A stretch of 64,000 bases of DNA, taken from NCBI GenBank assembly GCA_020720815.1, contig DYNY01000004.1, positions 1,783 through 65,782 of the forward strand, read 5' to 3'. Of this stretch, positions 1-14,126 are shown one piece after another. Under the pieces are notes generated by a model. It saw only the letters and a list, made by a program, of their open reading frames with translations. It made no database searches and was not told the origin of the DNA. The translations under genes and the position numbers were made by a program. Position 1 is the first letter of the stretch, and each line of letters starts with the position of its first letter. Source of the DNA: Candidatus Elulimicrobium sp. Its GTDB lineage: Bacteria; Patescibacteriota; Minisyncoccia; Phycocordibacterales; UBA918.

Positions 1-37
1 TATTGTGTTGCGTAACAATAGTGTTGTATATTACAAT

Positions 38-160
38 AATAGCGGCGAAGCAAACCAAAAAATCCTTTCCTTCATTTCTTTCGCCTTGCGGCGGGGGGGT
101 CTGGGGGGAGCCGCAAAAAATGATAAGGATTTTTTGGGTTTGCTTCGCCGTTTCAGTCTC
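38..160. repeat. Structured ~120-nt repeat, copy 1. A long imperfect hairpin (about 44-149) has a 24-bp outer stem, an inner 7-bp stem and a G-rich apical loop (ggcgggggggtctggggggag).
   Basis: 5' arm ggcgaagcaaaccaaaaaatcctt pairs with 3' arm aaggattttttgggtttgcttcgcc. About 80% identical to a second copy at 2622-2742. Confidence 0.6.
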
Positions 161-494
161 CGAAAAGAGCAATCTTATTTTAACATTTTTGTTTGCTCTT
201 TTCTCCACCCTCACGGCGACCGAGGCGCTCTCGTATCCGCACTTAGTGGTAACGCTAACGTCCGCGAACCACACACAATCGCCTCCGCATAGCCCGCTCG
301 CATTCGCTCGCGCTGGCTGCTTCAGCGTTCTGTGTGTTCACTCGGTAACTTCGAGAGAGTGTGATGGTGACTCAAAGAATAATGGATTGTGCTAAAGCAC
401 AAACAAATCTGTATGTGCTTGACCCGCCCTCCCGTTCGCGCACAACAATCCCCATCGTTTTTAGAAGATATTATAAAAGGATGGGGATTGCTCC

Positions 495-1535
495 CTATTT
501 CTTTAGGGTCATCTCCATCTCTCTGAACCAAAACAAAATTTCTTCTTTTTTCAAAATTATGCCAATTGCAAGTGTCAGTCTTTTCTGCAAAAACCTATGT
601 AATGCTTTAGGAAATTTTTGTTTTTTTAGTTCGGCATTTTTGTAAAGAAGAAATAAGAAAAGATCGATATAGTATATTGGCAACAACTTTTCTGCCTCTC
701 GTCTTAACTTGACAGTACTAGCAGTTTTACCAAAGTAAGTCTTCAAAATTAAAACCTTCTCGTCTTCTGTTAGTTTTCTTCCCAAAGTAAACTGATAGAT
801 AAAATCCATTAGTAAGTAGGCAACATCATGCATTGGGTTTCCTATTACTGATGTTTGCCAATCTACCAAATACCAGTGGTTTTTATGCAAAAAATTCTCT
901 GGAAATGGATCGTGATGAATAACCGATTTCCCAGACAGTAAATCTGTAACTGTTGCCAAGTATTTTCTGTATATGTCTTTTTTTTCAAAAAATATTTTTT
1001 CTATATCACCACCTTTGTTTGACGAAATACTTTTTAGTCGCTGATTATAAAGTTTTGACTTCCTACTCTCATCTGCATCAATGCTAAAAATTTTTTGGGC
1101 ATCTTTTGTTACTTTGACCTTGTGTAGTTTCTTTACAGTTTCTACAACCCCTGAAAAGTCAGAATCGACCTTTGAGCTATCGTGAGCAATGTATTCCTCA
1201 ATGAGAAACTCAAAAGGAAAAAACTTTTTACTTGTATCAACAAAGTATACTTTTGGGGTTATTTCGTAGCTCTCCAAGAATTTCAGTACTTGGTATTCGT
1301 TCTTTATACTTATTACATTTCCTGTATACCAATCTTTATCTTTCCAAAAATTGAAACGCATTATCAATTTTTGACCATCTTTAAAAGTAAGAAGATAGTT
1401 TGCATTTGCTAGTCCTTTGCCAATTTCTTTTACTACTTTGAGTTTCGGCAACCCTATCAAAAAAGTATTTTTTGGATGGGGTTGTTTGGCAAAGAAATGT
1501 TTTATCTGTTTAATCGGAATCATGTTTGAAATCAC
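495..1535 (-). CDS. Aminoglycoside/choline-kinase-like phosphotransferase (APH fold kinase)
   Basis: 346 aa. Catalytic loop HHDPFPENFL (HxDxxxxN) and metal-binding LVDWQ (DWE-like) motifs typical of the APH/ChoK kinase family. Last gene of a 3-gene minus-strand operon. Confidence 0.55.
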   Translation of the reverse strand: MISNMIPIKQIKHFFAKQPHPKNTFLIGLPKLKVVKEIGKGLANANYLLTFKDGQKLIMRFNFWKDKDWYTGNVISIKNEYQVLKFLESYEITPKVYFVDTSKKFFPFEFLIEEYIAHDSSKVDSDFSGVVETVKKLHKVKVTKDAQKIFSIDADESRKSKLYNQRLKSISSNKGGDIEKIFFEKKDIYRKYLATVTDLLSGKSVIHHDPFPENFLHKNHWYLVDWQTSVIGNPMHDVAYLLMDFIYQFTLGRKLTEDEKVLILKTYFGKTASTVKLRREAEKLLPIYYIDLFLFLLYKNAELKKQKFPKALHRFLQKRLTLAIGIILKKEEILFWFREMEMTLKK

Positions 1536-2337
1536 GCTTTAGGTAATCAAAATGTACTGGTTTTGCTTGAATATCACGATTTAAGGATTTTATATTGATT
1601 TCATCACCAACAACTGGTATCTCAAGCTCAAAAACCTCACCAGTTTTTGGTCCACTTCCTCCTTGAATGCTTGTGACTCCGTCAGTTGCGTGGCTCACAA
1701 CATCGTCGAGTGTTTCCTCGTGTTCAAGCTCGACAACCACAATATGTTTGTCTACTTTTGGTTGAATTGTGTGAGCGACACGCATGAGAAATGCTAGCTG
1801 ATCTTTTGACCGTTTGTCAACACTTTCGGGTGTTTCTAAAACATCAACACCACCCTGCTTCCAATGCTGAGTAGCTGTGCTTCCATGCGGAACTGATTGT
1901 TTTAGACTTGATAGTAATTCCCTAAAAGCCGGTGCGTAAGCGGGCTCATTGTGGGAGATTGGTTGAGATTCTGAATTGAGTATATCCGTACTCCTAACTC
2001 GATACTGATCCTCTCGTTCTTTTGGGTCGTCCCAAACAGTAAATCCGCGGTCTATTAAATAATTTTTGACGATTTGCGCAGAGTCTCGTGTACGTTTTCT
2101 TGGGCTGTAAACGACACAAACAACGTCCTCATCTTTGTTGAGTCTTTGAGAAATATTTTCAGCCGATGCCTCAATCTCCTTGATACCTTGTTCAGTTAGA
2201 TCAATGGTGTCATCATCAGGTATGCCTTTTAATTGTTCATTATACGGAGTGTGCCCATGACGAACACGAAATACTTTTATATTTTGCCAAGACGGCTTTT
2301 CGTTTGATTCTATCCTGCTATTGGGAAGTTGTTCCAT
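1510..2337 (-). CDS. Histidine phosphatase superfamily protein (phosphoglycerate-mutase-like N-terminal domain plus an uncharacterised C-terminal domain)
   Basis: 275 aa. RHG motif (VFRVRHGHTPYN) near the N-terminus and an SPRKRTRDSAQ segment typical of the PGAM family. Overlaps the downstream kinase gene by 26 nt. Confidence 0.55.
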   Translation of the reverse strand: MEQLPNSRIESNEKPSWQNIKVFRVRHGHTPYNEQLKGIPDDDTIDLTEQGIKEIEASAENISQRLNKDEDVVCVVYSPRKRTRDSAQIVKNYLIDRGFTVWDDPKEREDQYRVRSTDILNSESQPISHNEPAYAPAFRELLSSLKQSVPHGSTATQHWKQGGVDVLETPESVDKRSKDQLAFLMRVAHTIQPKVDKHIVVVELEHEETLDDVVSHATDGVTSIQGGSGPKTGEVFELEIPVVGDEINIKSLNRDIQAKPVHFDYLKRDFKHDSD

Positions 2338-2338
2338 A

Positions 2339-2536
2339 TTATTTTAATAATTCCTCCATTGGAACGCCTAACGATTTTGCGATTTTTTGAATTGTCTGAA
2401 CGCTTGGTTTTGTAACTACACCACCCTCAATTTTTGTAAGGGTAGAGTATTTGATATTGGCTTTTTTCGCCAAGTCGTCTTGCGTTAAACCCTGTTTTGT
2501 TCGCACTCGTTTTATGTTCTGTGATATAGTTGCCAT
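2339..2536 (-). CDS. XRE-family helix-turn-helix transcriptional regulator
   Basis: 65 aa. The segment QGLTQDDLAKKANIKYSTLTKIEGG is a classic Cro/C1 HTH. The stop lies 1 nt from the phosphatase start. Confidence 0.75.
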   Translation of the reverse strand: MATISQNIKRVRTKQGLTQDDLAKKANIKYSTLTKIEGGVVTKPSVQTIQKIAKSLGVPMEELLK

Positions 2537-2621
2537 AGTATGCTACTTTTGATAGTATAGAAATATGAGTCATCACTTTCTTTGCTCACAAAACAAGCAT
2601 AGCAAAAATAGTGATATTTTT

Positions 2622-2742
2622 CAAATAACGGCGAAGCAAGACCAAAAATTTCCTTTCCATTTCTTTTTCCGCTTCGCGGTGGAGGGGTGGGGGGAGGAGA
2701 CGCGAGAAAAATGCAAGGAAATTTTTTGGTTTTTGCACACGC
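2622..2742. repeat. Structured ~120-nt repeat, copy 2. It is degenerate: the outer stem is eroded while the inner stem and G-rich loop are retained.
   Basis: Aligns with copy 1 (ggcgaagcaa.accaaaaa..cctttcc...catttcttt..cgc.t.gcgg..ggggt.ggggggag). The inner stem carries compensatory substitutions relative to copy 1. Confidence 0.6.
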
Positions 2743-2867
2743 GAGTCCGCGAGCGTGTCCGAGGCGCATTGGTTCGCATCACCACGCAATCGGAGCGTAC
2801 GAGGCAGTTTCAAGCCACCACGCGCTCCGCGCGTGCGAAGTGGGTTCGAGCAAAGGTTAATACATCA

Positions 2868-2983
2868 CCGCAGAAAGAAACTTCCGAATCCGAAAGGTGG
2901 GAAGAAGCCCGCGCCGAAGGCGCGGGAGTGGGCAAAAGAGCCCGTCGCTTCGCGACGAATTGGGACGGGACGGGTGTGGCGAA
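2868..2983. repeat. 116-bp inverted repeat, left copy (IR-L), GC-rich
   Basis: Exact reverse complement of 4430-4545. Imperfect similarity continues for about 16 more bp (2984-3000 vs 4413-4429). Confidence 0.9.
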
Positions 2984-3022
2984 ATGCGCGAATTTGTCTC
3001 TTGTTTCGTATCTAAAAGCAAT

Positions 3023-4675
3023 ATGAATATCAAACCAAAATATTTTCTATACGCGCGAAAATCGTCGGAAGATGACGACCGACAAGTGATGTCTATTGAG
3101 GCACAGCTTTTTGAACTGCGAGAATTGGCGCGTAAAGAAAGTCTTGAAATTCTTGAGGAATTTCAAGAGTCGAAAAGCGCAAAGACACCGGGGCGCGAGG
3201 TGTTCGGTGAAATGTTCGCGAAAATTGAGAAGTTAGATGGTGTTGGCATATTGGCGTGGCATCCCGACCGCCTCGCACGTAACAGTATTGACGGTGGACG
3301 AGTAATTTACGCCGTAGACACTCGCAAGGTTGTGTCTTTGCGCTTTCCGACATTTTGGTTTGAACCAACCCCGCAAGGGCTCTTTATGTTGCAAGTGGCG
3401 TTCGGGCAATCTAAATATTACTCGGATAATCTATCTGACAATATCAAGCGCGGCATCCGCCAAAAATTGCGACGAGGCGAATGGTTGAATTTAGCTCCCT
3501 TTGGCTACACCAATAATCCGAAGGTGAGAAATATTGAGCCTCATCCGACAAATGCTCGCGTGGTGAAGTTAGCTTTTCAAGAATACGCCAAAGGGTCGTA
3601 TACTTTTGTTTCGCTCGCGCAATTTTTAGCGGACTTGGGCGTGGTGACTCGCAACAAAACGCCACTTGCCAAAGTTTCCATCAAACGGCTTTTGACACAT
3701 CGGGCGTATCTTGGTTTCGTCAAACATGGTGACGAATGGTTTGATGGAAACTTTGAGCCAATTATTTCTCCGCAATTGTTTGAAGCCGTGCAGAAAGTAT
3801 TGCAAACGAAAGACAGGCCGCGCAAAAGGAAAATCAAGCATGATTTTCCTTTCACTGGACTTTTTCGATGTGGCGAGTGTGGCAGTATGATTTCCGCGCA
3901 GTGGGCGACTGGAAAATCTGGTGGTCGCTATCGGTATTATCGGTGCTCGAAAAAGCGCGGCCACTGTTCGCAAGCGTATGTGCAGGAAAGTGAACTTACG
4001 CGGCAAATCTGTGCACGGCTTCAAACAATCTCGCTTTGCGATCGCTATACCGACTGGATGTTGGACAAAGTGAAAATGTGGGAGCGCGAGGAAATTGGAG
4101 CGTCGCAAAGCGAGGTTCAAAATCTTTCTGATGGAATCAAAGCGAACGAGGAGCGCATGGAAAAACTGCTCTCGGCGTATCTTGATGGCGATGTACCGAA
4201 AGAGGTTTATCTCAAACGAAAAGATGTTCTCATGCGCTCTCTCGCCGCTTTGAAGGAAAAAATGAAAGATTTTGAACGCGGAAGAAATAATTGGGTCGAA
4301 CCCTTGCGGAAATGGATTTTAGATACGAAACAAGCCAATTTTTTGTCCTCCTCCTCTGATTTGTACCAAATCAAGTCGTTCGTCCAAAAAATCGGAACGA
4401 ACCCTCTGGTTCGTGACAAATCCGCCCAGTTCGCCACACCCGTCCCGTCCCAATTCGTCGCGAAGCGACGGGCTCTTTTGCCCACTCCCGCGCCTTCGGC
4501 GCGGGCTTCTTCCCACCTTTCGGATTCGGAAGTTTCTTTCTGCGGAGAGAGGGGGATTCGAACCCCCGATTGGGTTTCCCCAATACTACCTTTCCAAGGT
4601 AGCGCGTTCAACCACTCTGCCATCTCTCCATTATTATTTTACTTCAATAAATGTTACTTTAAATTAAATATTTAA
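3023..4675 (+). CDS. Large serine recombinase (resolvase/invertase catalytic domain, recombinase domain, zinc ribbon, coiled coil)
   Basis: N-terminal YARKSSEDDDRQVMSIEAQ serine-recombinase catalytic motif; zinc ribbon CGECG...CSKKRGHC; recombinase domain. Start chosen at ATG 3023 (MNIKPKYF). There is no stop until 4675, so the reading frame runs through IR-R and tRNA-Ser. The C-terminal ~80 aa are probably not biologically meaningful. Confidence 0.8.
   Translation: MNIKPKYFLYARKSSEDDDRQVMSIEAQLFELRELARKESLEILEEFQESKSAKTPGREVFGEMFAKIEKLDGVGILAWHPDRLARNSIDGGRVIYAVDTRKVVSLRFPTFWFEPTPQGLFMLQVAFGQSKYYSDNLSDNIKRGIRQKLRRGEWLNLAPFGYTNNPKVRNIEPHPTNARVVKLAFQEYAKGSYTFVSLAQFLADLGVVTRNKTPLAKVSIKRLLTHRAYLGFVKHGDEWFDGNFEPIISPQLFEAVQKVLQTKDRPRKRKIKHDFPFTGLFRCGECGSMISAQWATGKSGGRYRYYRCSKKRGHCSQAYVQESELTRQICARLQTISLCDRYTDWMLDKVKMWEREEIGASQSEVQNLSDGIKANEERMEKLLSAYLDGDVPKEVYLKRKDVLMRSLAALKEKMKDFERGRNNWVEPLRKWILDTKQANFLSSSSDLYQIKSFVQKIGTNPLVRDKSAQFATPVPSQFVAKRRALLPTPAPSARASSHLSDSEVSFCGERGIRTPDWVSPILPFQGSAFNHSAISPLLFYFNKCYFKLNI
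4430..4545. repeat. 116-bp inverted repeat, right copy (IR-R)
   Basis: Exact reverse complement of 2868-2983. Its right end overlaps the 3' end of tRNA-Ser by 3 nt. Confidence 0.9.
4543..4629 (-). tRNA. tRNA-Ser (anticodon GGA), type II with a long variable arm
   Basis: Reverse complement reads GGAGAGA..CTACCTTGGAAAGGTAG..GGGGGTTCGAATCCCCC..TCTCTCC-G. Acceptor 7 bp, anticodon loop TTGGAAA, T-arm GGGGG/CCCCC, discriminator G. CCA is not encoded. Confidence 0.85.
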
Positions 4676-4715
4676 GAGGCAACACCGATATTTATACCAT
4701 AGACCCAGAAAACAT

Positions 4716-5780
4716 CTATAATCGGACATCGTCTATCAATTTAATAATATTTTGTAGAGGCCAAGCAATAGAAAACATGTAGTCTGAAATATTTTCATCA
4801 CTTATATGTTCAATTGTCTGATTCATTTTTATATTGTCATCAGGATAAAGAATATATAAGCGATTTTTTATGAATGACAAGCGAATATTAGTATTCTTTC
4901 CTTTCCACCACTCATACAGATCTCGCATAAAATCTGGAGTCAAAATATAGCGTGTTTCCAACTCATTATCGGTAGTTACATGCAATAGATTTTCAAAATC
5001 ATTCCACTCCAGCACAGTTTCTCTAACCTCTGATTTTTCTTTATTATTAAAAAGTCCTATATCTATATCCATATTTTTCTTCTTTTCAGTCGTAATAAAA
5101 GTTTTGCTATGTAAATCATTCTTTAAATCAAAAATAACAAAATAACCATGAAATATATTATTTGTTTGCAGATTCTTTCCATTACCAGTCACATGTTTCG
5201 TATAAAGCTCGACTATTTTGATAAAAGAATTGTTGTAGTTAATTTTAAGGACATTATCTACCTGATTAGTGTTATGTGGTTCTCTAATTAATTCTGAACT
5301 TTCAAGATCTGCCAAAGCCGAAACAAGCTCTGGGGTTTCGTTTATTTTCGCATACAAGAAAAGCTCTTGCCAGACTGTTAATTCTTTATTGCTAGATTGT
5401 ACCTCTTCTTTTACTACACTACCATTTAACGTAAGGAGTGCTAGTACGCGTTTAAAAATAATTTCATTTACTCCTGCATTATACTGCCTTATTATTTTTA
5501 GTTTTCCAGAAAAATATCTAAAGCCAAACTTCAATCCAAAGAAAAATAACCCGGCCCAAATAATTACTAAAACTGTATTTTCGTTGATAACAACCAGTAG
5601 ATAGGACGACATGAAAGACAGCACTAACAATAATATGCCCTGTTTCTGCTCATTCCTTGCTCGCAAATATTCCGTCTCTAATTCCCCGATTGCCGATCTA
5701 ATTTCAGCCATAATTCTAGCCGAATCATTTGAAATTTTTTCTTTTAGTCCTATTGACTCGCTTATTTCACTTGTTTTCAT
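4716..5780 (-). CDS. Hypothetical membrane protein (two N-proximal TM helices followed by a soluble domain)
   Basis: 354 aa ORF with a hydrophobic stretch LLLVLSFMSSYLLVVINENTVLVIIWAGLFFFGL. Sits next to the lemA/htpX cluster. Confidence 0.4.
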   Translation of the reverse strand: MKTSEISESIGLKEKISNDSARIMAEIRSAIGELETEYLRARNEQKQGILLLVLSFMSSYLLVVINENTVLVIIWAGLFFFGLKFGFRYFSGKLKIIRQYNAGVNEIIFKRVLALLTLNGSVVKEEVQSSNKELTVWQELFLYAKINETPELVSALADLESSELIREPHNTNQVDNVLKINYNNSFIKIVELYTKHVTGNGKNLQTNNIFHGYFVIFDLKNDLHSKTFITTEKKKNMDIDIGLFNNKEKSEVRETVLEWNDFENLLHVTTDNELETRYILTPDFMRDLYEWWKGKNTNIRLSFIKNRLYILYPDDNIKMNQTIEHISDENISDYMFSIAWPLQNIIKLIDDVRL

Positions 5781-5783
5781 ATC

Positions 5784-6683
5784 TTATCGCCCCATCTCCC
5801 GTAAAATACGGATTCTGTCTTCGGCTGGTGGGTGAGTAGCAAAAAGTCCATTGATTTTTTGTCCAATTGATCTCTTTCCGCCTACACTATATGGGTCAGC
5901 AATAAACAAGTGGGCGGTAGCGTGTGAGACACGGCGTAGAGGTTGATGATTTTGGGAAATTTTTTCTAACGCTGAAGCTAGACCTTCTGGGTAGCGAGTT
6001 AAAAGAGCAGCTGAGGCATCAGCTAAGTATTCGCGCTTACGTGAAATAGCGAGTTGAATCATCTGAGCAGCAATCGGAGCGAGAATAATTCCAGCGATAC
6101 CAAGAATGAGAAATAAAGGATTGCGCTCTCTATCACTATCACCACCAAACATCAAGGCGCGAGAAAGAAAGTCTGCCAAAATAGCTACAAAACCAGCCAG
6201 CACCACTGCCACAGTCATAACCAACATGTCGCGATTACCAATATGTGACAGTTCATGAGCCATCACACCTTCCAGTTCATTTTTATTAAGCAAGGCCACT
6301 AAGCCGGTGGTGGCTGCTACTACCGCATGCTCAGGATCCCTGCCAGTCGCAAAAGCATTTGGTGATGGGTCATTTACTAGATAAATCTTCGGCGTTGGTA
6401 AGCCAGCGGTAATCGAAAGATTTTCAACAATATTATAGAGCTCTGGCGCCTCTTGTCTTTCTACCGGCTTAGCACCAGTCATACTAAGTACTAATTTATC
6501 AGAAAACCAATAGCTACCAATATTCGTCATTATAGCGAAAATCACCGCTAGATAAAGAATACTTGAGTCATTTAAATACCAACTAACCACATAACCAATA
6601 GCTATCACGGCTATCAAAAAAGAACCCATCAGGAACCAAGTCTTCCTGATATTACTATCTTGTTGTGTGTAAAGTGTGGCCAT
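5784..6683 (-). CDS. htpX: Zinc metalloprotease HtpX (peptidase M48B)
   Basis: HELSHIGNRD HExxH motif, N-terminal TM helices, 299 aa. Confidence 0.85.
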   Translation of the reverse strand: MATLYTQQDSNIRKTWFLMGSFLIAVIAIGYVVSWYLNDSSILYLAVIFAIMTNIGSYWFSDKLVLSMTGAKPVERQEAPELYNIVENLSITAGLPTPKIYLVNDPSPNAFATGRDPEHAVVAATTGLVALLNKNELEGVMAHELSHIGNRDMLVMTVAVVLAGFVAILADFLSRALMFGGDSDRERNPLFLILGIAGIILAPIAAQMIQLAISRKREYLADASAALLTRYPEGLASALEKISQNHQPLRRVSHATAHLFIADPYSVGGKRSIGQKINGLFATHPPAEDRIRILREMGR

Positions 6684-6696
6684 GATTTACCTAACT

Positions 6697-7080
6697 CTAT
6701 AGTGGAATACCTTGTGGTGTCTCATTAGATTTGTAGCCAATATCTTCCGACCAAAGTAAAAAATTCTGATACTTATAACGACCTTTACGCAGTAAGTTCT
6801 CTGACCGTACAGCCATTACTTCTTCATGGGTAATATCAAGTTGTTGAATTATTGTTTCAAGCACGACCATTAAATCAGAATATTCTTCAAGAAAATCTTC
6901 TTTGGTACCCGTCATTGATAGTGACGTAGCCTCTTCTTTAATCTTTTTGAAAAGCTCCTGCTGAAACTCTTGCATGTCAGTAATGCGACGTACCTCACAC
7001 TTTTCATGTTTAGCATGGATAATATCTGGGACATTATCGCGAATCAGCTTGTTGTAATACACTCTGGTGGTAACAGACAT
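6697..7080 (-). CDS. MazG-like nucleotide pyrophosphohydrolase family protein
   Basis: YNKLIRDNVPDII N-terminus and EE-rich helices typical of the small MazG-like NTP-PPase family. Confidence 0.55.
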   Translation of the reverse strand: MSVTTRVYYNKLIRDNVPDIIHAKHEKCEVRRITDMQEFQQELFKKIKEEATSLSMTGTKEDFLEEYSDLMVVLETIIQQLDITHEEVMAVRSENLLRKGRYKYQNFLLWSEDIGYKSNETPQGIPL

Positions 7081-7088
7081 AGTTAAAA

Positions 7089-7670
7089 TTAAAAACTTAC
7101 CTTAACTGGCTGTCGAGCTACTTCCTCTCCTTCTCCTAATTCAAAGAAAGCCTCTTCCTTGAAGTTAAAGATATTACCGACTATGTTAGACGGAAAAGAT
7201 TGAAGTGCAATCTTAAGATCACGAACATTGCTATTGTAAAAACGACGAGCCGCTTGGATTTTATTTTCAGTATCAGTTAGTTCCAACTGCAAACTTGAGA
7301 AATTCTGATTGGCCTTTAAATCTGGATAAGCTTCCGCTACAGCCAAAAGTTTTCCTAGTGAGGCACCGAGTACTGACTCGGCCCCGGCCATAGCAGTAAT
7401 CTGCTCTGGTGTGACATTGGTCGGGTCAACGTGAACCTGAGTTGCTTTAGCTCTAGCATTAGTAACTTCTTCAAAAACTCCACGTTCATGGGCTGCATAG
7501 CCTTTAACAGTTTCGATTAAATTTGGAATAAGATTATAACGACGCTTTAGCTGAACATCAATGTCAGCCCAGGCTTCTTTAGTTCGTTGGACCAGCTTAA
7601 CAAAAGTGTTGTACGCACCAATACCATAGACTGCAACCAGTGCCAAAATAGCGATAATAACCCAAGTCAT
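7089..7670 (-). CDS. lemA: LemA family protein
   Basis: N-terminal TM segment, then AWADIDVQLKRRYNLIPNLIETVKGYAAHE, a typical LemA core. Confidence 0.8.
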   Translation of the reverse strand: MTWVIIAILALVAVYGIGAYNTFVKLVQRTKEAWADIDVQLKRRYNLIPNLIETVKGYAAHERGVFEEVTNARAKATQVHVDPTNVTPEQITAMAGAESVLGASLGKLLAVAEAYPDLKANQNFSSLQLELTDTENKIQAARRFYNSNVRDLKIALQSFPSNIVGNIFNFKEEAFFELGEGEEVARQPVKVSF

Positions 7671-7813: not shown

Positions 7814-9475
7814 CTAGTACATTCCACCACCCATTCCACCCATACCACCCATTCCGGCCATGTCAGACACTGCTTTTTCACGCTCTGGTTCATCAGCTAC
7901 CGCACATTCAGTGGTCAGTAGGATGCCCGCGGCTGAAACAGCATGTTGTACACAAGCTCTTTCAACTTTTACAGGATCAATAATTCCCGCCTTAATCATA
8001 TCATCCACCATTATTCCTTTAGATGCATCAAAGCCAGCATTGCCACCAGCTTCTTTTACTTTTTGTACAATCACTGCCCCATCAATCTTGCCAGTATTAT
8101 CAGCGATCTGACGTAGTGGCATTTCAAGTGCTTTAAGCACAATACTATAGCCAACCAATTCCTCCTTATCCATTTGCTTCTTAGAGAGGATGTCCTTTTC
8201 AACAATCGCAGCAGCCCGAGTCAATGAAGTACCACCCCCTGGCACGATTCCCTCTTCAATCGCGGCCTTAGTGGCATTGACCGCATCTTCAATCTTAAGT
8301 TTAAGATATTTCATCTCGGCCTCAGTCGCGGCTCCGACTCGGATAACCGCCACCCCGCCAGACAACTTAGCAATTCTTTCTTCAATTTTTTCCTTATCGA
8401 ATTTAGAGGTAGTTGCCTCTAGCTGAGCTTTTAGTGACTTTACACGATTTGTAATAACTGATTTATCACCACCGCCACCAACAATTACCGTATTGTCTTT
8501 GGTAGCAATTACTCGATCGGCTTTACCGAGTTGAGCAATTTCTGTCGTCTCAAGTTTTAAACCAACTTCTTCCGAAATAACTTGACCACCAGTAGTAGCG
8601 GCCAAATCGGCCAAGAGTTCTTTTTTACGATCACCATAACCAGGCGCTTTTACCGCCAAAACTGAAAAGCCACCCTTAATGCGGTTTACCACAAAAGTAG
8701 CTAAGGCTTCTCCCTCAACATCATCAGCAATAATCACCAATTCTTTCTTGCCGGTCTGTGCTATTTTTTCTAGTAGTGGCAAAATTTCTTGTACTGAGGC
8801 AATTTTTTTATCAGTAATCAAAATTATGGCACTTTTTTGTTCGGCCTCCATTCGCTCTGGATTTGTCACCATATATGGTGAGACATAGCCTTTATCAAAT
8901 TGCATACCTTCAGTCAATTCAGTCTCGATACCAAAAGACTGTGATTCTTCAACTGTAACTACTCCATCTTTTCCTACCTTGTCAATAGTTTCAGCAATTT
9001 TTTCTCCTAGCTCAGCACTTTCAGCTGAAATCGTCGCGACTTGCTTTATTTCATCAAGCGAGGTAATTGGTGTAGCCATCTTGCGTAAAGCCTCTACCAC
9101 ATCCGCCGACGCATGCTCCATCCCATTTCGTACCGCCATGGCATTAAGTCCCATAGTGGTTTGCCTAAGACCTTCAGTAAATAGAGCCTGAGTTAAAACA
9201 GTTGCCGTAGTGGTTCCATCGCCAGCTAGTTCATTAGTTTTATTGGCCACTTCCTTAATAATTTCAGCACCCATGTTCTCAAACTTATCCTTAAGAGTTA
9301 TTTCACGCGCAATTGAAACACCATCATTGGTGATGGTTGGTCCACCATAGCCTTTATCTAAAATGACATTTCTCCCGCGCGGTCCAAGCGTTACCTTAAC
9401 AGCGTTGGCAACAGTATCGACTCCTTTCTGTAATTTCTTCTTAACTTCTTCGCCGTACATTACTTGTTTAGCCAT
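7814..9475 (-). CDS. groL: Chaperonin GroEL (60 kDa)
   Basis: [10 protein letters not shown] start, [10 protein letters not shown] segment, C-terminal GGM repeats. 553 aa. Confidence 0.97.
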
Positions 9476-10448: not shown

Positions 10449-12173
10449 ATGCCGAATAAACTATCCATTACGGATCATCTCCTAGGAATTATAGAAAACA
10501 AAAAGCCCAGTGATCGCTTTATTTTGCGTGGACTATTAATTTTTACTATTGCGACTTTTATTTACTTTACCCTATCAGTTAATAATAGCTTCCTAATAAA
10601 CACACCGGCTCGTGGTGGCGTTTTAATCGAAGGAATTGTTGGTATACCAAGATTCGTAAATCCAGCCCTAGCTATCACCCGAGCTGATCAAGATACTGTA
10701 GCGCTTATATATAGTGGACTCATGAAAATAGACGAAAAAGGTACCCTAATTCCTGATCTGGCTGAAAATATAAGTGTTAGCGAAGACGGTCTAATTTATA
10801 CTATAATTCTTAAAAAGAATCGCTTTTTCCATGACGACACTTCGATTACCGCAAAAGATGTCATCTTTACCATCAATTTAATGCGTGACCCGGATCTAAA
10901 AAGTCCTTTACGAGGTAATTGGAATGACATCACTATAACTGAAGTAGGTAAATACGAATTGACCGTTACCTTAGCTGAGGCCTACTCTCCGTTTATTGAA
11001 AACTTTATTTTCGGTGTAATGCCAGAACATATTTGGAATAATTTACCGATTGAGCAATTACCCTTTAGTCAATACAATACTGAACCAATCGGTTCTGGAC
11101 CCTTCATGATTGCTAAAGTAAATCGAGATAGTTCCGGTTTAATTAGCGGTTATATTTTACGACCAGCCCCAAAAAATGAGATCCAACCAAATTTAGACTC
11201 TCTTGAGCTCAAATTTTTCCAAAACGAAACACTTTTAGCTACCGCTTTAGAAAAAGGTGAAATCACTAGTACGATTTTCTTACCCGCTGAGACTATTAGT
11301 CAACTAAACCAAGATAAGGTTGAAATTATCACTCATCCTTTACCCCGTATTTTTGGTATATTTTTTAATCAAAATCGGTCTGTTGTACTAAGAGATAAAG
11401 CAGCGCGAGAAGCTCTCAATGTTGCCATTGACAGAGAACTACTTGTCAAAGAAGTTCTAAGTGGTTTTGGTGTCCCCACCACAAAACCTATCGTTACCGA
11501 GCATCGTGCGTTACTATTGGGGGACACAGTTGAAGAAGACAATTCTACGAGTACATTTCGATCCCCAGAAGAAATTTTACAAACCGGAGGATGGAAAAAG
11601 AACGAAGCCGGTTTCTGGGAAAAAAAGCTTGATGATTCAATCCAGATTTTGTCTGTCACCATTAGGACAGGAAATTCACCTTTGTTCCAAAAAACAGCTG
11701 ACGGAGTAGCTCTGAGTTGGCGCAAAATTGGTATCGATGTTCATATCGAACAATACGAGCAGACCGGTCTGGTACAGTCAGTTATACGCTCTCGTGATTT
11801 TGAAGCTTTACTGTTTGGTCTTGATATGAACAGACTACAAGACCTGTATCCATTTTGGCATTCATCACAGAAAGATGATCCTGGACTAAATATTGCCCAG
11901 TATACCAATGTGCATGTAGATCGTTTACTGGAAGAAGCCCGCACCACCCAAGATAATGACGAACAATTAAGATTACTAGAAGAGACAAGTCAAATTATCG
12001 CTAGCGAAATACCAGCCATCTTCCTCTTTGCGCCAAGCATTAGTTACGTGGTAAATAAAAATATAAATGCAAGCGAGATGAATATGCTTGGAAGACCAGC
12101 CGACAGATTTATGAATATTAGCAATTGGCACGCCAGAACAACCGTAGTGTGGCCGATCTTTGAACAGAATTAA
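10449..12173 (+). CDS. Family-5 solute-binding protein (peptide/nickel ABC-transporter-like), membrane-anchored
   Basis: 574 aa with an N-terminal TM anchor. Overall similarity to the SBP_bac_5 architecture, judged by eye. Confidence 0.5.
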   Translation: MPNKLSITDHLLGIIENKKPSDRFILRGLLIFTIATFIYFTLSVNNSFLINTPARGGVLIEGIVGIPRFVNPALAITRADQDTVALIYSGLMKIDEKGTLIPDLAENISVSEDGLIYTIILKKNRFFHDDTSITAKDVIFTINLMRDPDLKSPLRGNWNDITITEVGKYELTVTLAEAYSPFIENFIFGVMPEHIWNNLPIEQLPFSQYNTEPIGSGPFMIAKVNRDSSGLISGYILRPAPKNEIQPNLDSLELKFFQNETLLATALEKGEITSTIFLPAETISQLNQDKVEIITHPLPRIFGIFFNQNRSVVLRDKAAREALNVAIDRELLVKEVLSGFGVPTTKPIVTEHRALLLGDTVEEDNSTSTFRSPEEILQTGGWKKNEAGFWEKKLDDSIQILSVTIRTGNSPLFQKTADGVALSWRKIGIDVHIEQYEQTGLVQSVIRSRDFEALLFGLDMNRLQDLYPFWHSSQKDDPGLNIAQYTNVHVDRLLEEARTTQDNDEQLRLLEETSQIIASEIPAIFLFAPSISYVVNKNINASEMNMLGRPADRFMNISNWHARTTVVWPIFEQN

Positions 12174-12191
12174 TAACTACTGAAAAATACT

Positions 12192-14126
12192 ATGAACTCT
12201 AACCCAATAAACAACAACCGATCACAGAGTGACCGACTAAACCAGAGGCCACCACATGGGCGCACCAACTACGTTCCCGGCAACAGACCAGTCGGGGCTA
12301 CTTCATCACCTAATAGAAAAACTTCAGCTGGCAGTAATGGACGAAGCAGACGTAACCACCCACAAAAAAGACGTAGTACCACTGCCCCGGCTTTGACCCA
12401 CCGCATGACTACTACTAATGAAAAAAATCCTGTTATTCCTGAAGTTATGGATGATGATACCGTACGTGTAATTCCAGTTTCGGGAGTAGAAGAAATTGGC
12501 CGCAATATGATTATTGTTGAAACCAAAGATGATATTGTTGTAATTGATGCTGGTTTTCAATTCGTTACTGAAGAAAGTAATGCTCCGGGAATAAACTATA
12601 TTCTACCAAACACCCAGTATCTAGAAGAACGAAAACATAAAATTCGTGCTCTCATTGTCACCCACGGCCACCTAGACCACATTGGTGGTATTCCTTTCAT
12701 TATTGAACGTATTGGTAATCCAGCGATTTATACCCAATATCTAACCTCTTTAATGATTCTCAAAAGACAAGAGGAATTTCCTCACATTGAACCAGTGAAC
12801 ATGAACGTTATAAAAGAGGGAGAAAGTTTTACGGTTGGAAAAATGCGTATTAAAACCTTCCCTGTCACTCACTCTATTCCTGATGCTATGGGTGTTTGCG
12901 TAGAAACAAAACATGGCGATGTTGTCATCACTGGTGATATTAAACTGGTTCACGAAGATGGGAAGGTAGTGGTAGAGGAAAGAGCTTCTTGGGAAAAAGT
13001 TGGTCTTAACAAAAACCTGGTCTTACTATGTGATTCAACTAACGCTGACCGGGAAGGTTTTTCTGCTTCTGAGGAACGCGTGTATGAGACTCTAGACAAT
13101 ATTATTGCCTCTGCCACCGGACGTCTGATTATAGGTACTTTTGCCTCTCAATTTGATCGACTCATCAATATTATTAAAACCTGTGAAAAACTGGGTAAGA
13201 AAGTAGTGCTTGAGGGTCGTAGTATTAAAACCAATATTGACATTGCCATTCAAGCAAAATTAATTGAAGTACAACCACATACTTTCATTTCCCCAAGTGA
13301 TATCGGGGATTACCCAAGCGACAAAATTGTTATCTTATCGACCGGTGCTCAAGGAGAGGAGTTTGCTGCTCTAATGCGAATGGCAACCGATAAGCACAAG
13401 TTCGTCACCTTAAACGAACGAGACACAGTGGTTCTATCGTCTTCCATCATTCCAGGTAACGAAATCGCTGTACAAAAGCTGAAAGATAATATTTATCGTA
13501 AGAACGTCCGCGTAGTAAATTACAAAGGCTCACACGTCCACTCCTCTGGACACGGTAACGCCGGCGAACTGGTTTGGATACACCAAGCGGTTAAGCCTAG
13601 GTTTTTAATTCCTGTGCATGGACATCACTACCATCTCAAGAGCCATATGTACGCCGCTATTGAAAATGGTTTTCCTAAAGAAAACATAGTGGTGCCAGAC
13701 AACGGAACTATCATCGATATAAAAAATGGTACTGAGATGATTCGTCATTCCATAAAGATCCCAACCGAGATGGTTTTGGTTGACGGCTTTACTGTCGGAA
13801 CTCGACAAGAAGTTGTCTTGCGCGACCGTCTCAGTCTTGCCCAAGATGGTATGTTTGTAATTATTGCCACTGTCAATAATAAGACCGGCAAGCTACGCAA
13901 ATCACCAGACATTATCTCACGTGGGTTTGTTTATCTAAGAGAAAATCAGCAACTACTATCTGAAGCCCGAGTACTGATTAAGAGAACTGTAGAAAAACAT
14001 ACCGAAAAAATGAATCCGCTTGATCTTGATTACGTAAAAGATCAACTATCTGATGTAGTCAGTGGCTTCTTGATGCAGAAGACACAAAAGACACCTATGG
14101 TTATCCCAGTCTTAATTGGTATATAA
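12192..14126 (+). CDS. rnj: Ribonuclease J (metallo-beta-lactamase / beta-CASP) with a basic N-terminal extension of about 90 aa
   Basis: ALIVTHGHLDHIGG HxHxDH motif and beta-CASP and C-terminal domains. The N-terminus is R/N/P-rich. Alternative starts exist at 12408 and 12447. Confidence 0.85.
   Translation: MNSNPINNNRSQSDRLNQRPPHGRTNYVPGNRPVGATSSPNRKTSAGSNGRSRRNHPQKRRSTTAPALTHRMTTTNEKNPVIPEVMDDDTVRVIPVSGVEEIGRNMIIVETKDDIVVIDAGFQFVTEESNAPGINYILPNTQYLEERKHKIRALIVTHGHLDHIGGIPFIIERIGNPAIYTQYLTSLMILKRQEEFPHIEPVNMNVIKEGESFTVGKMRIKTFPVTHSIPDAMGVCVETKHGDVVITGDIKLVHEDGKVVVEERASWEKVGLNKNLVLLCDSTNADREGFSASEERVYETLDNIIASATGRLIIGTFASQFDRLINIIKTCEKLGKKVVLEGRSIKTNIDIAIQAKLIEVQPHTFISPSDIGDYPSDKIVILSTGAQGEEFAALMRMATDKHKFVTLNERDTVVLSSSIIPGNEIAVQKLKDNIYRKNVRVVNYKGSHVHSSGHGNAGELVWIHQAVKPRFLIPVHGHHYHLKSHMYAAIENGFPKENIVVPDNGTIIDIKNGTEMIRHSIKIPTEMVLVDGFTVGTRQEVVLRDRLSLAQDGMFVIIATVNNKTGKLRKSPDIISRGFVYLRENQQLLSEARVLIKRTVEKHTEKMNPLDLDYVKDQLSDVVSGFLMQKTQKTPMVIPVLIGI

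Follow-up and report, generated by a model that had tools for sequence, protein, structure and literature searches.

A two-gene histidine phosphatase–APH-fold kinase operon in Patescibacteria as a possible small-molecule phosphatase/kinase module

Gene layout of the locus

We analyzed a 64,000-nucleotide (nt) stretch of DNA from Candidatus Elulimicrobium sp. (Patescibacteriota; assembly GCA_020720815.1, contig DYNY01000004.1, positions 1,783–65,782), hereafter called the window, with a focus on three closely packed genes on its minus strand. A previous sequence-only reading had proposed that these genes form a tripartite toxin–antitoxin (TA) or defence module. In order from the 5′ end, they encode a 65-amino-acid (aa) XRE-family helix–turn–helix (HTH) protein (2339–2536; PF01381, 5e-17), a divergent branch-1 histidine phosphatase of 275 aa with a C-terminal beta extension (1510–2337; PF00300, 5e-8), and a kinase of the APH/choline-kinase fold (495–1523; PF01636, 7.5e-16). 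The open reading frames (ORFs) were found where they had been predicted, and the hidden Markov model (HMM) searches that had been called for returned the domains that had been assigned. Homologues exist for all three proteins, which are thus encoded by real genes and not by chance ORFs. The HTH and phosphatase genes are separated by 1 nt, as first described. The phosphatase and kinase genes also overlap as described, but not by the 26 nt then given, which followed from assuming a GTG start at position 1535 (495–1535, 346 aa). The ATG at 1523, which yields a kinase of 342 aa, is favored by the gene calls on identical contigs and by the N-termini of 14 homologues, and from this start the overlap is 14 nt, the same as at loci L001 and L017 (L numbers designate the loci collected for comparison). 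Upstream of the HTH gene, a sigma-70-like promoter on the minus strand (2596–2624; TTGAAA-17-TATGCT with an upstream TG) was identified solely by its match to the consensus, and this site is where the XRE protein probably acts to repress the operon.

Predicted properties of the phosphatase and the kinase

The phosphatase matched His_Phos_1 with 33.3 bits (cut-off, 21.7), and the match was limited to residues 25–93. Relatives of two types, long (as in the window) and short, pair with the kinase family, and residues R26-H27-G28, R80, R82, and H206 were invariant in both phosphatase alignments, even when the very divergent short-type relatives were included, whereas E205 was invariant within the long type only. 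The RHG motif, the second arginine, the second histidine, and the fold are those of branch 1 of the histidine phosphatases. The AlphaFold model (predicted local distance difference test [pLDDT], 90.6) consists of a histidine-phosphatase core up to approximately residue 220, followed by three beta strands (235–264), so that the extra C-terminal domain noticed earlier exists, though it is small. In Foldseek searches, the matches were phosphoglycerate mutases (dPGM), the glucosyl-3-phosphoglycerate phosphatase GpgP, and an HFP-type riboflavin-pathway phosphatase, with template-modelling scores of just 0.45–0.5; the fold neighbors are metabolite phosphatases and mutases. An exhaustive profile search of 1.84 billion representatives (50%-identity clusters) gave 664 matches at E ≤ 1e-3 and 24 at E ≤ 1e-30, and judged from these sequences, the phosphatase forms a distinct small subfamily. 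Scans of 10 long or atypical phosphatase relatives for a fused kinase domain found none. An 1161-aa protein in which a fragment of a class I aminoacyl-tRNA synthetase is joined to four His_Phos_1 repeats (P0072) is a curious fusion that has no connection with the window.

The kinase matched PF01636 with 59 bits (cut-off, 23.2), and its Pfam matches were confined to APH and EcKL; neither the Pfam Choline_kinase family nor any HipA domain matched it. In an alignment of 15 sequences, H203, D205, and N210 of the HxDxxxxN loop, D221 of a DWQ motif, R56, and E76 were invariant, and a second profile search with this alignment recovered the same 15 proteins. The AlphaFold model (pLDDT, 84) has a bilobal kinase fold, which Foldseek matched with a probability of 1.0 to ethanolamine kinase, APH, and Mph structures. 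The best folds in the PDB were ethanolamine/choline kinase, 25-OH-steroid kinase, APH(9), APH(2''), and Mph, and the best PDB match by sequence was the choline kinase LicA (4R77; 4.3e-8). The best NCBIfam models were also those of small-molecule kinases, every one of them far under its cut-off. Nearly all neighbors by fold or sequence are thus small-molecule kinases, the exceptions in the fold list being Escherichia coli YihE (rank 32) and Bacillus subtilis YtaA (ranks 38 and 40). YihE is presumably an APH-fold protein kinase, although its PDB entry calls it a hypothetical protein. On the basis of these models and sequence affinities, the kinase looks like a small-molecule kinase. Because the catalytic residues are invariant in both families, both proteins look like active, catalytically competent enzymes.

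Conservation of the phosphatase–kinase pair

To collect genomic contexts, we looked up exact protein matches and ran a single scan each of genomes and of metagenomes; the ORFs of these contexts were then searched with the family HMMs. A phosphatase gene followed by a kinase gene, the two overlapping or adjacent, was found in about 11 distinct contexts, with phosphatase identities down to 34%. Every kinase homologue with readable upstream sequence had a phosphatase directly upstream, either overlapping or within 45 nt, which bears out the coupling of the two enzymes postulated from the window. The comparative sequence data therefore strongly support a two-gene phosphatase–kinase operon as the conserved unit. 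What had been a guess from one genome is now a defined two-gene family with about 11 contexts, invariant catalytic residues, and high-confidence models.

The contexts are diverse. In addition to the window, they are L001–3/L022 (a HicA-like gene upstream and alaS–secE–nusG downstream), L004 (SocA_Panacea nearby and a serine recombinase about 7 kb away), L005 (rpoBC), L013/14 (tRNA-Gly and tRNA-Thr upstream), L017 of Candidatus Yonathbacteria (after gyrA), L018 (after murA–mreB and before glycosyltransferases), L020/21, L023, L024, and L029. Several of these, namely gyrA, rpoBC, alaS–secE–nusG, and murA–mreB–glycosyltransferases, are plain housekeeping surroundings. The named genome hits were metagenome-assembled genomes (MAGs) of Candidatus Yonathbacteria and of a "Patescibacteria group" member, together with a MAG labelled Bdellovibrionales that is possibly mis-binned.

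The HTH gene did not follow this pattern. It was found in none of the other pair contexts whose ORFs were searched, and a phmmer search against the ORFs of L001–L026 matched only the window and the identical contig L015. Even at L020, where the phosphatase and kinase are 83% and 74% identical to those of the window, respectively, the upstream gene encodes an unrelated 171-aa protein. Judged by these sequences, the XRE HTH gene is a lineage-specific addition outside the conserved module. Since the sequence-only reading had made synteny of the trio in other genomes a test of its proposal, and the HTH gene is missing from all other contexts, we dropped the tripartite interpretation. The likeness drawn to the HipB–HipA and HipBST systems also fails. 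It is limited to the window, where a small XRE HTH gene stands ahead of the operon that includes the kinase gene; the kinase belongs to PF01636 and is not HipA-fold, the HTH is not conserved with it, there is no HipS-like protein, and the middle gene encodes an enzyme.

Exchange of partners and sister phosphatases

The identity matrix of 11 pairs showed overall co-divergence of phosphatase and kinase (Mantel r = 0.56, p = 2e-4), yet also clear exchanges of partners between lineages. For example, the group-B kinases (L004, L005, and L013) are 47–54% identical to the window kinase, whereas their short-type phosphatases are just 23–29% identical to the window phosphatase. At L018, a phosphatase with 45% identity is paired with a kinase with 29% identity, and at L029, a phosphatase with 35% identity is paired with an APH kinase from another lineage (17%). 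The partners of the long-type phosphatases comprise three APH lineages (74%, 29%, and 17% identical to the window kinase) and, in addition, dikinase-type proteins.

Phosphatase relatives with 41–47% identity (L008–L011 and L019) had no APH partner. In three lineages, sister phosphatases lie between murC and murB. The next gene there encodes a stand-alone PEP-utilizers (phosphohistidine swivel) protein of 93 aa that keeps the phosphohistidine motif, and after it come a 143-aa protein that matches nothing in Pfam or NCBIfam and, in some cases, DUF72. At L012, the phosphatase follows a 662-aa dikinase that is similar to phosphoenolpyruvate (PEP) synthase and lacks the pyruvate-binding domain; this alternative partner resembles dikinases of the rifampin-phosphotransferase type. 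The sister phosphatase loci are at 8001–10266 of L008, 3477–5736 of L011, 2407–3942 of L019, and 1265–4579 of L012. As far as the sequences indicate, the constant theme is a phosphatase encoded beside some phosphoryl-transferring enzyme, and because APH or PEP-type partners adjoin the same phosphatase, it would be served by ATP-type or PEP-type phosphoryl donors.

Repeats, recombinase, and signs of mobility or defence

The structured repeats reported around the trio exist, as direct repeats at 14–141 (3′ of the kinase gene) and 2604–2733 (5′ of the HTH gene) with 75% identity over 138 columns (E = 1e-13). Both copies, of ~130 nt, are long imperfect hairpins, and RNA folding of the left copy gave −53 to −59 kcal/mol, with z of about −6 to −8. 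There were no further copies within the 64-kb window, and an Rfam search of positions 1–6000 (E ≤ 1) returned tRNA only, with no match for the repeats. The noncoding segments beside them (150–490 and 2740–2864), which have no Rfam match or convincing ORF, appeared G+C-rich when judged by eye rather than computed, against about 40% G+C elsewhere in the window. A C-rich tract (C4–9 N1–4 C4–9), often followed by a short GC hairpin, occurs on the minus strand in both repeats (93–108 and 2684–2694) and also 3′ of the kinase gene in L013 (6436–6450), L023 (2133–2143), and L029 (2347–2356). We give this tract no weight, because it is no more frequent in the window than chance would produce and the loci align poorly with one another.

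Direct repeats also bracket the pair in two other lineages. At L024, two identical 126-nt copies (1–126 and 1995–2120; 100%) flank the pair closely, the gap being 6 nt on the start-codon side and 16 nt on the stop-codon side. They are not an artefact of a circular contig, given that another 21 nt follow the second copy and that the flanking sequences are different. At L004, the copies (7100–7140 and 9030–9070) match perfectly over 21 nt and imperfectly over about 42 nt, with a chance expectation of 0.01. A neighboring 380-aa gene in L004 has 148-nt flanking repeats of its own (4292–4439 and 5545–5692), which suggests that genes in these genomes have been inserted or duplicated as repeat-bounded cassettes. 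An integron-type cassette was considered and rejected: by eye, the window repeats lack the RYYYAAC/GTTRRRY ends of attC sites, the L024 and L004 repeats are not long hairpins, and the sole recombinase beside the trio is a serine recombinase, not an IntI tyrosine integrase.

This large serine recombinase (3023–4675, plus strand) is encoded divergently from the trio, 486 nt away, and abuts a tRNA-Ser (GGA) gene (4542–4629, minus strand; ARAGORN; Rfam tRNA, 56 bits). It contains the Resolvase (PF00239, 5e-21), Recombinase (PF07508, 6e-14), and Zn_ribbon_recom (PF13408, 4e-11) domains and matched the phrog_95 integrase over residues 2–423 (1.3e-78); an exact look-up of the protein returned no record. 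A 134-nt inverted repeat (97% complementary) brackets the gene, with its left arm (2865–2998) just 5′ of the start and its right arm (4415–4548) inside the 3′ end, where it covers the last 7 nt of the tRNA-Ser gene. Further inverted-repeat segments occur at 3000–3022 and 4312–4334, and the last ~120 recombinase codons are encoded by the repeat arm and the antisense of the tRNA-Ser gene. This segment could be an invertible element that carries its own recombinase, as with hin, or an insertion scar beside a tRNA gene. In independent assemblies of the same strain, the arrangement was unchanged, the contigs broke at the direct repeats and the inverted-repeat arms, and no empty-site variant was seen.

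Only two of the about 11 contexts (the window and L004) have a serine recombinase close to the pair, so that the view of the trio as cargo of a recombinase element is not established. Some traits of an accessory element are present, namely the repeats in three lineages and the tRNA and TA genes nearby, whereas the recombinase proved not to be recurrent and the neighborhood is ordinary chromosome, not a defence island. No PADLOC-DB 2.0 family matched the kinase or the phosphatase, and the matches of the HTH protein were to generic HTH models only. Neither enzyme had a specific match in IMG/VR, the INPHARED phages, the PLSDB plasmids, or PHROGs. The idea of a defence module is therefore not supported, and the TA interpretation of the trio is weakened, as far as sequence comparison can tell, by the non-conserved HTH, the absence of defence, phage, and plasmid matches, and the small-molecule affinity of the kinase.

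Interpretation of the pair

We favor, with evenly balanced confidence, the interpretation that the pair is a small-molecule phosphatase/kinase module rather than a TA system, because of the conserved coupling of the two genes, the intact active sites, and the affinities of the kinase to small-molecule kinases. The phosphatase would take a phosphate off a phosphorylated compound that the cell has scavenged, and the kinase would then use ATP to phosphorylate the product again at the position that the cell needs; both the identity of this compound and the reaction order are conjectural. Such a sequence would account for the co-expression of enzymes that seem to oppose each other without a futile cycle, as well as for the gene order, the cell-wall gene contexts, and the exchange of ATP-type for PEP-type partners. 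Phosphatase MupP and the anomeric kinase AmgK act in sequence in this way in the recycling of N-acetylmuramic acid. The likeness would extend to the order of a phosphatase and then an APH-fold kinase, which is a sugar kinase in that pathway, and to a link with the cell wall, echoed here by the murA/mreB and murC–murB contexts; these mur-gene contexts of the pair and of the sister phosphatases are suggestive only. Unlike here, however, MupP is a HAD phosphatase, and the present kinase is nearer to choline/ethanolamine kinases and has no MurU neighbor. Similarity to LicA, the best match among solved structures, is weak, there is no licB, licC, or licD adjacent, and, as noted above, Choline_kinase does not match. 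Alternatively within the same interpretation, both enzymes may set the level of one phosphorylated metabolite in the manner of PFK-2/FBPase-2, in which a kinase is coupled to a branch-1 histidine phosphatase and controls one metabolite pair. In PFK-2/FBPase-2, which is eukaryotic, a P-loop kinase domain and the phosphatase are fused, whereas here, two separate proteins are encoded and the kinase is APH-fold. Patescibacteria have a minimal metabolism and rely on scavenged compounds. If the pair is metabolic, it represents an uncharacterised salvage or control step in these bacteria, and the fact that its phosphatase has partners now of the ATP type, now of the PEP type would hint at a single common substrate, perhaps one connected with the cell wall.

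Several observations weigh against a small-molecule module. NahK appears only at ranks 49–50 in the fold list, and the kinase is thus not specifically AmgK- or NahK-like; no MurU-like gene or other nucleotidyltransferase gene was adjacent in the pair contexts examined. The family is rare and patchy, with three loci among 185,579 species representatives and the 24 clusters at E ≤ 1e-30 mentioned above, a rarity more in keeping with an accessory function than with core metabolism. Partners have been swapped between lineages, the pair sits tightly between direct repeats in three of the lineages, those of the window, L024, and L004, and tRNA genes adjoin it in three lineages. At three loci, HicA, SocA_Panacea, and PemK genes are at most two or three genes away from the phosphatase gene, and one phosphatase occurs without a kinase, whereas no kinase occurs without a phosphatase. 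The rarity, repeat flanks, tRNA and TA neighbors, partner exchange, and orphan pattern also fit a toxin–antidote module.

Such a toxin–antidote or abortive-infection module, in which the kinase would poison the cell through an essential metabolite or protein, the co-translated phosphatase would reverse the damage, and the HTH protein would be a lineage-specific autoregulator, is possible but rather unlikely. In addition to the points just listed, and to a serine recombinase near some loci, it agrees with the position of the putative antidote gene, which comes first and overlaps the kinase gene, and with the stronger divergence of the phosphatase than of the kinase between group A and group B (23–29% vs. 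47–54% identity). It agrees less well with the lack of PADLOC matches and of relatives in the phages, plasmids, and viral contigs searched, with the restriction of the family to one narrow clade, unlike promiscuous TA families, or with an HTH gene that is not conserved with the pair. Several contexts are housekeeping ones, a sister subfamily has a stable place between murC and murB, and we know of no toxin in the APH-fold kinase superfamily. To our knowledge, neither the APH nor the histidine-phosphatase fold has been seen in TA or defence systems; if the toxin–antidote interpretation is true, both would join the TA repertoire, and the phosphatase would be a second, independent phosphatase antitoxin.

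The precedent for a phosphatase antitoxin is KKP, a system of Pf prophages composed of the kinases PfkA and PfkB and the phosphatase PfpC, which was shown by experiment in 2024 to be both a TA and an anti-phage system (PMC11341870). KKP combines a PP2C phosphatase (PF13672) with a pair of Hanks kinases (PF00069) that carry CSD and FHA domains and phosphorylate proteins; it occurs in Gram-negative bacteria, and more than 90% of its copies are prophage-borne (PMC11341870). As in the present pair, a kinase is opposed by a co-encoded phosphatase whose gene comes first. Here, however, Pfam identified His_Phos_1 and a single APH kinase, the enzymes had no matches among the phages and viral contigs searched, and the host belongs to the Patescibacteria. 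The statement that a kinase/phosphatase combination of this kind had not been described consequently stands for these folds, for which literature searches on the pairing of APH and histidine phosphatase found nothing, but not for the concept of a kinase/phosphatase TA or defence system, which has been published (PMC11341870). The toxins of epsilon/zeta (PezAT) systems are small-molecule kinases (PMC5923241), showing that a metabolite kinase can be a toxin, which is the logic of the toxin–antidote interpretation. They are nevertheless P-loop kinases neutralized by a binding antitoxin and not by a phosphatase, and we found no sequence or fold relation to them. A hitherto undescribed modular toxin–antidote family of Patescibacteria, in which a dedicated histidine phosphatase as the antidote is combined with interchangeable small-molecule kinases of at least three APH lineages as the toxins and, in sister systems, with PEP-synthase-type phosphohistidine proteins, and which would move as a short repeat-bounded cassette, would unite the logic of the zeta toxins with the enzymatic antidotes of KKP and DarG, but we consider such a family doubtful.

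A quite improbable third interpretation is a signalling pair at the protein level, in which the kinase phosphorylates a protein and a SixA/PGAM5-like phosphatase acting on phosphohistidine, phosphoserine, or phosphothreonine resets it. The SixA phosphohistidine phosphatase model is the best NCBIfam match of the short-type phosphatases (3e-11) and also matches the window phosphatase (2e-4); all of these scores are nonetheless far under the family cut-offs. Relatives of the phosphatase adjoin stand-alone phosphohistidine swivel domains with the catalytic histidine kept, but APH kinases use no phosphohistidine intermediates. YihE, with its presumed protein-kinase role, is in the fold list, although only at rank 32 and below the small-molecule kinases that head it, and no candidate protein substrate is conserved nearby. 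Finally, an accessory cassette in which an APH/Mph kinase modifies xenobiotics or antibiotics and the phosphatase has an unrelated or auxiliary role would suit the fold matches to APH(9), APH(2''), and macrolide phosphotransferases, the rifampin-phosphotransferase-like alternative partner, and the cassette-like repeat flanks, but is very improbable, given that all NCBIfam resistance models score far under their cut-offs, a strictly coupled phosphatase would undo an inactivating phosphorylation, and PLSDB holds no plasmid relatives. As for the pair itself, it joins members of two well-known enzyme superfamilies, is lineage-restricted and uncharacterised, and shows an unusual way of exchanging partners.

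Neighboring genes in the window

The neighbors of the locus in the window encode DUF3137, HtpX, LemA, GroEL/ES, a solute-binding protein, RNase J, MFS and HAD proteins, and glycosidases. A tight minus-strand block at 4716–7670, by groES–groEL, contains the genes for DUF3137, an M48 (HtpX-like) peptidase, a 127-aa protein with no Pfam match, and LemA. Genes for a solute-binding protein (SBP_bac_5) and RNase J are present a few kb from the pair both in the window (10449–14126) and at L017 (453–4449), in the same divergent orientation and with 34% and 49% identity. We did not rely on them as evidence for vertical inheritance of the pair, because by our own estimate about one such coincidence is expected among the loci compared. 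The shared genes may be a remnant of common regional ancestry or a coincidence.

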